Assembly (NCBI RefSeq): GCF_026571515.1
Contig: NW_026867152.1
Location: forward strand, 186,001-248,758
DNA from: Ruditapes philippinarum
Lineage: Eukaryota
Length of the DNA: 62,758 nt
Direction: 5' to 3'
This document shows positions 36,001 through 39,000 of the stretch, piece by piece; positions within the stretch are counted from its first letter, which is position 1, and every line of letters starts with the position of its first letter. Position numbers: made by a program.

Positions 36001-39000
36001 AGCCTATCAGCGTGGTAAAATCCAAAGATTTCTTAGTCAGGTCTACATAAACCCAGCAAAATCCCTGGCCCTGTAAACGCCCATATCTAGCAATGCCCCC
36101 AGGCCCTAGATGTTTTGTACATTGTACTAGGGATATAAGAAACTGATAAAAATTTTGAAAAGTTTTTCTAATTCTTCTATATATCGCCTTAAATTTAATA
36201 CAGATTGTACATCCAATAATGTTATTTTATTTAATATCAATGTAAAAAAATGCAGCATGCAATATGTTGGCCAAACTAAACAACAAGTGTCCAAAAGAAT
36301 TAATAGTCACAGATTTGACATTAGGAATTTCAGTGACCCTGTGTATGCCAGTGGTGTTGCAAAACATTTTAACACTACAGACCACAGTGTAGAAGACTTC
36401 AGCTTTTTACCTATTGACATTGTTGACAATGACATGGACAGACTCGTCCGTGAAACATCTTGGATTCACAGACTTGATACTGTGTTTCCTTCTGGCATGA
36501 ACAACCAGTGTATTGTTCAAATTGTAAATTTTAGTTGGCAATTATAAGTATATAGCAACTGTTTTAAAACTTTCTCCATGCATTTTTAATGTTTTGTCTT
36601 ATTATTATTTTACACTTTTCTTCATTATTTTTACTTATTTATATCATTTTTTTCATAAAATATTTCATTATTGTTATTTATTACCTCCCTTTATTTTTGA
36701 AAGAATAATTTTCCCCCTTCTATTTTATGATTTTATTTTACAAATTAGTTTTACANNNNNNNNNNNNNNNNNNNNNNNNNNNNNNNNNNNNNNNNNNNNN
36801 NNNNNNNNNNNNNNNNNNNNNNNNNNNNNNNNNNNNNNNNNNNNNNNNNNNNNNNNNNNNNNNNNNNNNNNNNNNNNNNNNNNNNNNNNNNNNNAATGTT
36901 GTTGTTATTATATTATTATTATTATCTTTTTTTATTATTCTAGATAACTTGCTGGTTAATTAAAGTAATGCTTTCTCGCTAATTCCCAGTGAATGTATAT
37001 ATAAAATTATATGATATATTTTGACATATAGGTATGTTGGGTTTTATCATTTTTCTCTGCTTTATATTGTAGAAATATAGTTCTATTATTAATACCCACT
37101 GTATCTTTTTGATCCATATCTATTTGTTAATTACTTTATAATCACGTTTTTGCGCAATTTTGTCACGTTGACGTTGGCGTCCTAACGGACGTGACGTCAA
37201 ATACTTTGTACGTTATTCTGATGAAGACAATAGTCGAAACTAGTAAAGATTAAAAAAAAATATGTGTTGTTTTGGTGTATTTTAACCGAGTTAATCTTAC
37301 GAATTTGTCTCTTATTGCAGACTTTAACTGCTGTGTACTTTCTGATACAGGGCTGGACACGCTTTCTTTTAGGTACCTCCAAAACATGTCTTGACACATT
37401 ATAAAAAACTGATCATTTATTACAAAATTGCTAAGTACACTAACTAGCTAATTCTTCCAAATTAAAATTTCTTTATCATTAAGGACAAATATTGTAAACA
37501 AGTAGAAGTCACAATGAACAATTATTATTAGTCAATAAAGACTATTTTGATGTTGATGTATTTCGGTATATGTCTGATTTAAACAATACTTATATCACAG
37601 ACAATGAGATTATGTACGTTTTCCAGTTTGTAGAATATCTTTTTGCAATGTTAATATGCTATCAATTGCCTTTTAAAGCTGTCATCATAAAAATAAAATT
37701 TGCCCGTGATATATCACAAAAATGAACAATTCATCTCAAGCAAACTGATCTATTATGTCTAGAAGGTCATTTGTATAAAACCTCATTCATATCATTTGCT
37801 GCAAAAGAATTAATTCTTAATATATATATTGCTCCTTGTTTGAAATTCACTTTACATAATGGTAGACGAACGTTTCCTAATAGACGGCTGTTGAATTGAT
37901 TTTCATATACTTACACTAAATTCAAGGCTACATGCCTCCAGATAAAAGTAAAATATTCACTATTCGAGAAATAATTTTCATATTATAAGTCAGATTTAAA
38001 CTGCAAGAAACTAACACAGGGAAGCTACGCATGCAAACTAAATTGTTTTGCTTGCAAATTCATGAAAAACTCGGTAGAGATTAAAAGCACAACAACGTCC
38101 GAGGTATTTAAAATTCAAGGTCATTTTACATGTAAAACTCCGAGCATTATATACCTAATAACTTGCAAAAATTGTAACATTCAGTACGTGGGTCAGACGG
38201 GAAACACTATCAAAGAAAGACTCTATGGTCATATGGCGGATATTCGAGCGAAAAACACATTTAAACCAATTGCGCGCCATTTCGGCACTGAACACGACGT
38301 CACGAACATCACGATTACGATAATACAAAACACGGAGCGCAATCTAAACAAAAGGTTACGAACTGAAGAACTATGGATAAAGAAGCCCAACACAAAAACA
38401 CCAGACGGATTAAATTTAATTTAAAAGATATATTATACGCTAAGAAATTAGAAGACCACACAGAGAAAGAATTAGAACAACTAAATTTTGTAGACAACAT
38501 CCACATATGTAACACATGCAAACTAGTCGTAAATTCAGCAAAAAACCTGAGAAGACACATGAAAAAACATGAACAAACAACTTACAAATTGAGATGTGAT
38601 TGGTGCCAGAGAGAGACTCTTTAAAACATCATTCAAGAAATATTCATTTTCTACGTGAGGAAAAATTCCATATGGTAAAAATTTTAAATTCCACGACTCC
38701 ATCAAAAGACTCTCCCAAAAAGATGACTATTCTCAAGAAACCAACCTTCAGAATTATCCAAGGCAAGAATTTTCCAAAACGCTATCTATTTTTAGAAAAC
38801 TTTATTAATTTTGTTACTATTTTTATATATCACGTGACTTACCATCTTACACAATTTTTATACTTTAGCTAGATTTATATTTTTTTAAATTTTATCCTGA
38901 TGAAGAACCAGATAGCTTCGAAAACGGTAGATCTTTTATTAAAATTTTGTTAACAGTTATCCGGTGTTGACGTGTGGTTTCTTTGAATTCTCCCTTTTCA

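Follow-up and report, generated by a model that had tools for sequence, protein, structure and literature searches.

Organization of the locus

The window, i.e. the whole stretch of 62,758 nucleotides from Ruditapes philippinarum that was analysed, contains a separate Penelope-like element (PLE) copy of another family and, downstream of it on the same strand, a 5'-truncated PLE fragment. The fragment carries the 3' part of an RT-EN gene (ORF1) ending in a GIY-YIG endonuclease (EN), a remnant of a second reading frame (ORF2) with C2H2 zinc fingers, and a hammerhead-like motif. Coordinates are collected in Table 1. The G+C content of the window is ~30%.

Table 1. PLE features at the locus; positions are counted from the first nucleotide of the window.
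Feature	Position	Strand	Basis or remark
Separate PLE copy, another family	34024..37299	+	empty site in two paralogous host-repeat copies
Upstream copy, ORF1 (RT + GIY-YIG), broken	34027-36547 (outer bounds)	+	comparison with P0001 and P0002
Upstream copy, hammerhead-like motif in the 3' region	37218-37245	+	pattern search, alignment with the focal motif
5'-truncated PLE fragment, outer limits	37946..39050	+	host-repeat homology breaks at both sides
ORF1 remnant: RT-EN linker (C-x3-C-x2-C), GIY-YIG endonuclease, natural stop	37975..38424	+	translation, Pfam, BLASTP
ORF2 remnant: N-terminal region, finger 1 complete, finger 2 incomplete, basic motif	38373..38767	+	tblastn of relatives
AT-rich spacer, ORF2 remnant to hammerhead-like motif	38768..38896	+	no homology
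Hammerhead-like core: CTGATGA box, extra A, short G...C-closed hairpin, GAAA box	38897-38923	+	pattern search
6-nt palindrome after the hammerhead-like core	38929-38934	+	whole motif region 38897..38934

The focal fragment is an estimated ~1.0-1.1 kb in size and sits within a host repeat. In paralogous copies of this repeat homology stops at 37945 (2 copies, 93-95% over 42 nt) and picks up again at 39028-39051; the left edge of the fragment lies between 37946 and 37975 and the right edge between ~38935 and 39050. There is no second copy of the stretch between the host-repeat flanks in the window, and, the host repeat being a mosaic, no clean empty site for the fragment was found among its paralogous copies. 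EN, ORF2 and the hammerhead-like motif are grouped between the flanks, as one insertion unit. Across EN and ORF2 the AT skew is +0.23 to +0.44 (A over T), and it falls to ~0 past roughly 38770. Judged from its sequence, the focal copy is inert; it is 5'-truncated and has a broken ORF2 next to an intact EN tail.

The upstream copy is delimited by an empty site in paralogous copies at 15758/15762 and 23133/23128. Its ORF1 aligns with P0001 in 4 pieces, with 3 frame changes, 3 in-piece stops and 1 insertion-like stretch, and with P0002 in 3 pieces, with 1 frame change, 3 stops and 1 insertion-like stretch. The first-pass annotation had taken the focal EN to be the C-terminus of the RT encoded upstream. 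This part of it does not hold: the focal EN belongs to a separate fragment and is 30% identical to the EN of the upstream copy. In tblastn searches with the ORF2 family, no significant ORF2 homologue is found in the upstream copy, whose 3' region includes 139 N (36756-36894).

Endonuclease remnant

The ORF1 remnant is an open frame from end to end, with no internal break, and its 5' part is missing. The GIY-YIG domain is recognized by Pfam (PF01541) at E=4.1e-11 / 6.6e-11, with 43.5 bits against a cut-off of 22.6, and the stop codon at 38422-38424 lies directly before the finger segment, as had been proposed. A C-x2-C lying between GIY and YIG, together with His residues downstream, aligns with the closest RT-EN relative, P0001, and corresponds to the CCHH motif as described in the consulted sections of PMC8557442. 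The C-x3-C-x2-C motif upstream of EN has its Cys residues at the same positions in P0001 and is of the kind found in Neptune/Nematis-type linkers.

In P0001, RVT_1 is followed by GIY-YIG; the focal fragment itself holds no RT. By BLASTP the focal ORF1 is 45% identical to P0001 (66/146), and the alignment ends at residue 618/619 of that protein. P0001 ends one residue past the focal EN stop, and the fingers are therefore not a C-terminal extension of ORF1. The contig from which P0001 originates differs from the contigs of all ORF2 relatives.

ORF2 remnant

ORF2 starts in the -1 frame of ORF1 and shares the final 52 nt of that gene. Immediately 3' of EN, and in a frame other than that of EN, lies finger 1 with the pattern C-x2-C-x12-H-x3-H; taken alone, it reaches E=4.2e-4 and 21.0 bits with Pfam zf-C2H2, below the cut-off of 25.2. 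Finger 2 is incomplete and is followed by a basic stretch in the third frame. Two breaks account for the state of ORF2, namely 1 frame change and the loss of the C-terminal third. As a result, 71/207 residues of the relative P0005 and 94/233 of P0007 have no focal counterpart.

The focal finger ORF matches P0005 at E=1.3e-35, with 78% identity over 96% of the query, and P0004 at E=8.7e-26. In tblastn against the focal locus, P0005 aligns over residues 1-136/207 at 81% identity, in 2 pieces in 2 frames, and P0007 over residues 1-139/233. For 9/10 ORF2 family members the focal locus is the only match at E<=1 in the window; elsewhere in the window, including the region behind the upstream PLE copy, ORF2 homology is limited to weak matches (E>=0.07). 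The perfect C2H2 finger, the broken second finger and the basic tail of the first-pass annotation are thus all confirmed by translation and by the P0005 match. That annotation drew the segment as 38412..38872. Its fingers and basic tail are homologous to the relatives, and the end of the frame up to 38872 is without homology: no ORF2 family member aligns past 38786, and the open frame that reaches 38872 contains no Pfam family.

ORF2 relatives and the predicted protein

The search with P0005 returned 2026 proteins at E<=0.001. Among the 150 matches listed, 141 are multi-finger proteins, so the family counts at least 10 members. The remaining 9 listed matches align with long coverage in one stretch (P0007, P0013, P0117, P0024, P0025, P0138, P0054, P0016, P0004), and these, P0004 included, together with P0005 make up the 10 relatives considered here. 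P0015 (604 aa, 5 repeated two-finger units) was left out of the family as a generic multi-finger match, and so were the other 140 multi-stretch matches among the 150 listed, also generic multi-finger proteins. The close relatives P0004 and P0005 come from short contigs (1130 and 2314 nt).

Confinement of the finger segment to this copy, which would have spoken against the first-pass interpretation, is thus contradicted by the relatives elsewhere. Three relatives are open over 207, 227 and 233 aa, with 35-78% identity to the focal ORF2 or to one another; in the search with P0005, P0007 (233 aa) is 46% and P0013 (227 aa) 35% identical. The chance of 207-233 open codons at the local base composition is 7.5e-8 to 9.5e-9, in line with a maintained coding frame. 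Column by column, the zinc ligands of finger 1 are kept in 8/8, 8/8, 7/8 and 6/8 members and those of finger 2 in 6/7, 7/7, 7/7 and 6/7. Every missing ligand falls in short members, and the members at 35-46% identity, open over 227-233 codons, retain all 8. Certain C-terminal columns are conserved as well, in 5/5 members that are long enough.

Intact relatives encode proteins of ~207-233 aa in which a short N-terminal helix region is followed by two classical tandem C2H2 fingers. With Pfam zf-C2H2 (PF00096, cut-off 25.2), P0005 scores 28.8 bits, P0013 31.2 and P0117 31.0, and P0007, at 20.5 bits, stays below the cut-off. In a PDB profile search, matches are confined to profile positions ~15-82 and comprise CTCF, ZNF568, ZBTB7A and similar proteins. 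The predicted structure has pLDDT 85-91 over the fingers and pTM 0.28, and its best Foldseek matches are DNA-bound C2H2 domains, though 0 of them are at E<=0.001. The fingers are followed by a basic beta-hairpin motif, which is the 'basic tail' noticed at the focal locus. The C-terminal part is predicted to be largely disordered, with family-recurrent proline-rich and serine/acidic stretches and a short terminal helix. For the C-terminal half there is no match in Pfam, the PDB profile search or Foldseek; in the ESM Atlas whole P0007 retrieves generic C2H2 clusters only, and P0007 residues 105-233 retrieve nothing. A Myb domain is absent from the Pfam scans of the focal ORFs and of the relatives.

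The EN-ORF2 junction in relatives

Whether the relatives also descend from an EN-ORF2 arrangement was assessed by fitting their first 16 ORF2 codons to the EN tail in the shifted frame, with permuted tails as controls. Five relatives reach the ORF2 start and were compared as proteins. All of them fit the focal EN tail, at 15/16 positions for P0005, 16/16 for P0004, 14/16 for P0007, 14/16 for P0025 and 10/16 for P0013, whereas permuted tails fit at ~3 positions on average and 0/2000 permutations equal the observed fit. The independent tail of P0001 gives 11/16 (P0005), 11/16 (P0004), 10/16 (P0007), 12/16 (P0025) and 10/16 (P0013), against 1-4/16 for the other shift and ~3 for permuted tails; here 0-2/2000 permutations equal the observed value.

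P0013 shares only 2/17 of its first residues with the focal ORF2 and fits the EN tail nonetheless, which suggests that the EN frame is constrained. Since the fit is found in 5/5 N-terminally complete relatives, the EN-ORF2 junction appears old and shared and not a one-off. An independent insertion of the finger segment, the other circumstance that might have undone the first-pass interpretation, is contradicted by the same result. On the codon compatibility of the proteins, the EN junction is judged common to the family, including members with only 35% ORF2 identity. The shared Met-Asp-Lys start may be a partial by-product of the conserved EN Trp codon and of the start choice of gene callers.

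Hammerhead-like motif

Downstream of the AT-rich spacer the hammerhead core boxes occur in the right order, and to this extent the hammerhead described in the first-pass annotation is present. The focal motif also aligns with the like motif behind the upstream PLE copy. The comparison used the features of PLE min-hammerheads given in the consulted part of PMC4209133; helix III and the cleavage site of the focal motif are without canonical placement. The core-box pattern has 3 matches in the window vs 1.13 expected, and 11/100 shuffles reach 3.

With Rfam at gathering scores the whole window gives 0 matches. At E<=10 there is no hammerhead among 10 matches in 33000-40500, nor among 2 in 38760-39060. 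PLE min-hammerheads may often escape the Rfam hammerhead models. Thermodynamic folding of both hammerhead-like regions is no better than that of shuffles (z=+0.53 and +1.31), and a stable monomeric ribozyme therefore gets no support. According to the consulted part of 10.64898/2026.07.22.740005, birds and mammals lack non-LTR retrozymes, the distribution of which coincides with the PLE distribution.

Comparison with known systems

The systems compared below are taken as they are described in the consulted portions of the cited papers. Canonical EN+ PLEs of the Neptune / Nematis type are described as single-ORF elements (Craig et al. 2021, PMC8557442). The focal element resembles them in that its closest relative has RT and then EN, in its 5' truncation and in the hammerhead-like boxes near its 3' end, and its C-x3-C-x2-C is comparable with the CX2-5CxxC-type motif upstream of EN in Neptune/Nematis. 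It differs from them in having more than a single ORF: a second, two-finger C2H2 ORF overlaps the end of ORF1 and fills the pre-hammerhead region.

Accessory ORFs or nucleic-acid/chromatin-binding domains in PLEs have precedents in two groups. Athena/Terminons, which are EN- and telomeric, carry extra GDSL, DEDDy and coiled-coil ORFs (PMC5408684), and among the N-terminal-EN elements of algae Chlamys-2_cBra has an upstream gag-like zf-CCHC ORF and Chlamys has PHD/SAP domains (PMC8557442). These cases differ from the present one in clade, in position (upstream ORF or in-ORF domain) and in domain type; none of those described there involves an animal PLE with C-terminal EN and a downstream C2H2 ORF.

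For the fingers themselves, the most likely working analogy would be R2 non-LTR retrotransposons, target-primed retroelements in which N-terminal C2H2 fingers, together with Myb, recognize the DNA target (PMC11204384). The R2 fingers, in contrast, are fused N-terminally to a single RT-EN protein, whereas those of ORF2 are in a separate downstream ORF and are not accompanied by Myb. R2 also has another EN and belongs to another RT clade, and the homology shared with ORF2 is that of the generic finger only. Classical tandem C2H2 domains (CTCF, ZNF568, ZBTB7A, Tramtrack) resemble the two ORF2 fingers in sequence profile and predicted fold. They differ in that ORF2 has only two fingers with an unusual linker, and its remaining ~130 aa match nothing.

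Interpretation and alternative explanations

The segment is probably what decay has left of a true second gene of an EN-bearing PLE lineage, with fingers that would bind nucleic acid in an accessory role; we put the probability of this reading at roughly 0.75. The relatives and their shared EN-ORF2 junction support the proposal of the first-pass annotation that, in one PLE subfamily, an additional zinc-finger module lies between EN and the ribozyme. In an intact element, the ATG of ORF2 would lie within the final 52 nt of ORF1 (RT-EN) in the -1 frame, and ORF2 would occupy the stretch upstream of the hammerhead motif that canonical PLEs treat as untranslated pLTR. It could be translated from its own or a spliced transcript, by re-initiation or by a -1 shift. 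The two fingers would bind nucleic acid, either a DNA target or the DNA or RNA of the element itself, and the basic motif may serve in nuclear import or in contacts to the backbone, such that the protein could serve as an accessory factor for the ribonucleoprotein of the element. DNA binding is suggested by the likeness to classical tandem C2H2 fingers only. A stronger version of this reading is tentative: an animal EN+ PLE lineage could be truly two-gene, with a selected, overlapping downstream gene whose two-finger, sequence-reading C2H2 protein steers insertion or recognizes nucleic acid of the element itself. Such a protein would correspond, in trans, to the N-terminal fingers of R2, and its gene would be the first accessory one described for canonical-type PLEs.

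Alternatively, ORF2 could be passive cargo, a fragment of a host finger gene that was captured once behind EN and is carried by non-autonomous or dead derivatives without use to the element, its conservation being due to recent copying or to use by the host. Foreign ORFs are indeed acquired by PLEs and other retroelements (the GDSL and DEDDy ORFs of Athena/Terminons are shared with other retroelements, according to the consulted part of PMC5408684), and the dead focal copy, the origin of the close relatives on short contigs only (1130 and 2314 nt) and a C-terminal half without known family agree with such a history. Yet members at 35-46% identity have remained open over 227-233 codons with all zinc ligands in place, and retention of the EN-frame tail at the ORF2 start in 5/5 testable relatives argues for long co-descent with a constrained EN and not for recent copying of a dead chimera. 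Capture of this kind is therefore unlikely. That the finger-like ORF has nothing to do with the element, being an independent insertion beside an EN fragment or an ORF that arose by chance in AT-rich DNA, would fit a fragment without a clean defining empty site and a single focal finger under the Pfam cut-off, but is very improbable: the matches at E=1e-35 and 9e-26 span the ORF1/ORF2 overlap, and the overlap-frame tests and the common composition of EN and ORF2 contradict it.

A further alternative concerns how ORF2 is read. If ribosomes shifted by -1 within the 52-nt overlap, it could be expressed as a C-terminal zinc-finger extension of RT-EN, a possibility suggested by its -1 frame relative to ORF1, by a focal frame that is open from only 2 codons ahead of the ATG and by an in-frame X XXY YYZ heptamer at 38412-38418. 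A stable structure after the heptamer is absent (-3.3 kcal/mol, z=+0.75), so that a frameshift stimulator is unsupported, and residues at the heptamer position are compatible in 1/5 relatives only (P0004). All 5/5 N-terminally complete relatives instead carry an ATG of their own at the corresponding position, and we regard the fusion as quite unlikely.

Significance

A PLE with a C2H2 ORF or a second downstream ORF was not found in the published articles searched; the first-pass annotation likewise knew of no description of a zinc-finger PLE subfamily. The consulted text of PMC8557442 makes no mention of C2H2, of ORF2 or of a second, additional or downstream ORF.

With the overlapping-frame test, orphan ORFs can be linked to a retroelement from protein sequences, without recourse to their DNA. 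If the second-gene reading is true, the annotation of such PLEs would change, since without it ORF2 would be overlooked or assigned to the host as a zinc-finger gene. Target choice and RNA assembly of canonical EN+ PLEs are poorly known, as described in the consulted parts of PMC8557442 and PMC11167929, and ORF2 would offer a specific candidate for the recognition of the target or of RNA. An animal EN+ case would then join the few PLE lineages that have gained extra ORFs.

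The finger frame and its relatives

The focal Penelope-like element (PLE) fragment carries, behind its GIY-YIG endonuclease (EN), a second frame, ORF2, that opens inside the end of the RT-EN gene (ORF1). From its ATG, ORF2 encodes one full C-x2-C-x12-H-x3-H finger and the beginning of another, while the remainder of the second finger lies in a third frame together with the basic stretch quoted in the first-pass annotation. The order described there, one complete and one incomplete finger and then the basic stretch after the endonuclease stop, is confirmed, in frames downstream of or overlapping ORF1. 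Taken by itself, the single focal finger would be a weak observation (21.0 bits, E=4.2e-4, under the Pfam cut-off of 25.2). The focal copy is a dead fragment. Residues 1–136 of the 207 of its relative P0005 align with it at 81% identity in two pieces and two frames, and because P0005 reads through both pieces, focal ORF2 contains one frame change. It is also a decayed copy, because the C-terminal part kept in relatives is missing: there is no counterpart for the final 71 residues of P0005 or the final 94 of P0007.

Coordinates of features in and around the two PLE copies
Feature	Position (nt)	Strand	Remarks
ORF1 (EN) remnant	open frame from 37975, stop 38422–38424	+	by translation
ORF2 ATG	38373	+	by translation; within the last 52 nt of ORF1
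Heptamer X XXY YYZ	38412–38418		ORF1 frame, inside the ORF1/ORF2 overlap
Second PLE insertion	34024–37299		another family, about 3.3 kb, bearing the upstream RT; empty site in two paralogous host-repeat copies (15758/15762, 23133/23128)
Run of 139 N	36756–36894		upstream PLE copy, 3' region, strongly AT-rich (G+C 9–17%)
Upstream-copy hammerhead-like motif	37218–37245		both core boxes, one extra A, 3-bp helix II, 4-nt loop, 6-nt palindrome, A

A near search with the finger ORF gave one candidate, P0004 (70 aa, 77% identity, E=8.7e-26), and a search for longer proteins with the same query gave, as one of 27 candidates, P0005 (78% identity, E=1.3e-35), an open ORF with both fingers complete. The exhaustive search with P0005 returned 2026 proteins at E≤0.001. 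Among the 150 matches listed, 141 are multi-finger proteins aligned in several stretches, and at least nine align as a single stretch across large portions of the query: P0007 (233 aa, 46% identity), P0013 (227 aa, 35% identity), P0117, P0024, P0025, P0138, P0054, P0016 and P0004. P0015, which has five repeated units, was set aside. There may be further family members beyond the matches listed.

Given the local base composition, stops should occur about once in 13 codons (0.076 per codon), and 207–233 open codons would arise by chance with a probability of 7.5e-8 to 9.5e-9. In A3, the alignment of the ORF2 family, the zinc-ligand columns hold a ligand in 8/8, 8/8, 7/8 and 6/8 (finger 1) and 6/7, 7/7, 7/7 and 6/7 (finger 2) of the members with a residue there; the misses are confined to the short members P0024, P0025, P0004 and P0138. 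All nine members retain the Phe in the basic motif, and several C-terminal columns, e.g. P0007 residues 178–185 and 199–209, are conserved in all five that reach them.

Linkage of ORF2 to the endonuclease

Could the fingers simply prolong RT-EN at its C-terminus? Among three proteins at E≤0.001 (55 candidates), the one closest to the focal EN piece is P0001, a 619-aa protein with RVT_1 and GIY-YIG domains. The two share 45% identity over 146 residues, and the alignment stops at P0001 residue 618. P0001 therefore ends at the focal EN stop, which rules out such an extension.

The overlap test compares, at 16 positions, the EN tail with the residues that a relative's first codons could encode in the focal ORF1 frame; it uses protein sequences of relatives and only those with the N-terminus. 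The fit to the focal EN tail is 15/16 for P0005, 16/16 for P0004, 14/16 for both P0007 and P0025, and 10/16 for P0013, against ~3 for permuted tails (none of 2000 scores as high as observed). P0117, P0138 and P0024, whose predicted start lies further in, fit at 3/16, 2/16 and 2/16, as expected for non-overlapping sequence. The independent P0001 tail gives 11/16 (P0005), 11/16 (P0004), 10/16 (P0007), 12/16 (P0025) and 10/16 (P0013), with 1–4 in the other shifted frame and ~3 after permutation (0–2 of 2000 reach the observed value). By eye, two of the first 17 residues of P0013 are identical to those of focal ORF2; judging from these comparisons, the frame conserved at the P0013 start is that of the endonuclease. 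Indirectly, the fit would be hard to explain unless each of the five ORFs begins inside a PLE EN tail. Independent relatives and the overlap thus both support the proposed PLE subfamily bearing a zinc-finger accessory module.

ORF2 lies in the −1 frame relative to ORF1. The heptamer in the overlap is probably a chance occurrence in AT-rich DNA, because folding found no structure 3' of it (z=+0.75) and it is not kept in relatives, being compatible, by eye, with the residues of one of five. The ATG is at the same place in all five, which may be partly a by-product, because two of its bases belong to a conserved EN Trp codon. A separate ORF2 protein seems more likely than a fusion with ORF1.

Genomic setting of the two PLE copies

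Direct repeats in a mosaic make up the window (69–92% identity; 33 pairs ≥400 nt, all sharing one orientation), which resembles a tandem or segmental array of long units that has decayed. The two PLE insertions sit within one repeat unit, ~650 nt apart. Homology to the paralogous repeat copies stops at 37945 and restarts at 39028–39051; therefore EN, finger segment and hammerhead-like motif share one extra stretch of 1.0–1.1 kb, for which no clean empty site was found among those copies. An A-over-T skew runs unbroken across EN and ORF2 (+0.23 to +0.44) and falls after ~38770.

In the empty-site comparison of the upstream insertion there is an overlap of 6 nt, possibly a target-site duplication. 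As this insertion is separate and its EN shares only 30% identity with the focal EN, the latter is the tail of a distinct, 5'-truncated PLE fragment. ORF1 of the upstream copy is broken (three frame changes, three in-piece stops and one insertion-like stretch relative to P0001). Because its run of N is unfilled, an ORF2-like piece may sit there. One perfect 32-nt palindrome occurs in a G+C-richer stretch of the insertion.

Hammerhead-like motifs

The first-pass annotation placed a hammerhead behind the fingers, and this part holds only loosely. The window has three matches to the two-core-box pattern where 1.13 are expected, and since 11 of 100 shuffles reach three, the count alone proves nothing. 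Two matches are on the + strand, one 3' of each PLE EN and 60–130 nt from each insertion's end; they align mutually over the boxes and preceding bases. In both, an additional nucleotide follows the first box and helix II is closed by a G...C pair, features of PLE min-hammerheads (Cervera and De la Pena, PMC4209133). The third, at 25351–25377, is probably a chance match, with neither feature and no PLE coding remnant nearby.

Rfam found no hammerhead in the window, the upstream-copy motif included, and monomer folds of the hammerhead-like regions are no better than shuffles. PMC4209133 also reports poor monomer folds for motifs believed to work as dimers, an agreement that gives no positive support. 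The upstream-copy motif matches the published min-hammerhead better than the focal one does: its palindrome directly follows the second box, as PMC4209133 gives for positions 15–16, whereas the focal palindrome lies 5 nt later, which leaves no canonical placement for helix III and the cleavage site.

The ORF2 protein and its place among PLEs

Pfam finds nothing besides C2H2 fingers in the ORF2 proteins, above cut-off in P0005, P0013 and P0117. The A3 profile matches the PDB only at positions ~15–82, to DNA-binding tandem fingers (138 sequences, E≤0.01). In an AlphaFold model of P0007 (10 sequences; mean pLDDT 64.0, pTM 0.28) confidence is high for the fingers (blocks with pLDDT 85–91) and for a beta-hairpin at residues 132–146 (blocks with pLDDT 83 and 77); elsewhere it is mostly low, with a helix at residues 215–226. 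Foldseek of this model against the PDB gave no match at E≤0.001, the top ones being CTCF and ZBTB7A fingers on DNA. In the ESM Atlas, whole P0007 falls to generic C2H2 clusters, and residues 105–233 have no match.

Canonical EN+ PLEs are described as single-ORF elements (Craig et al. 2021, PMC8557442), and the main text of that paper uses none of the terms C2H2, ORF2, or second, additional or downstream ORF. Among Chlamys types, it records one with a zf-CCHC ORF placed upstream and others with PHD and SAP domains. Athena and Terminons have additional ORFs, GDSL and DEDDy among them (PMC5408684). In Frangieh et al. 2024 (PMC11167929) the pLTR, the terminal repeat region, is the stretch that separates tandem ORFs; it is untranslated and contains the hammerhead. 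A PLE with a downstream C2H2 ORF was not found among the main texts of openly accessible papers.

Since Pfam, PDB profile, model and Foldseek all point to C2H2 fingers of the DNA-binding type, it can soundly be inferred that the ORF2 protein binds nucleic acid. In R2 elements, N-terminal fingers recognise the target DNA (PMC11204384). The fingers of ORF2 might act on a DNA site or on the DNA or RNA of the element itself.
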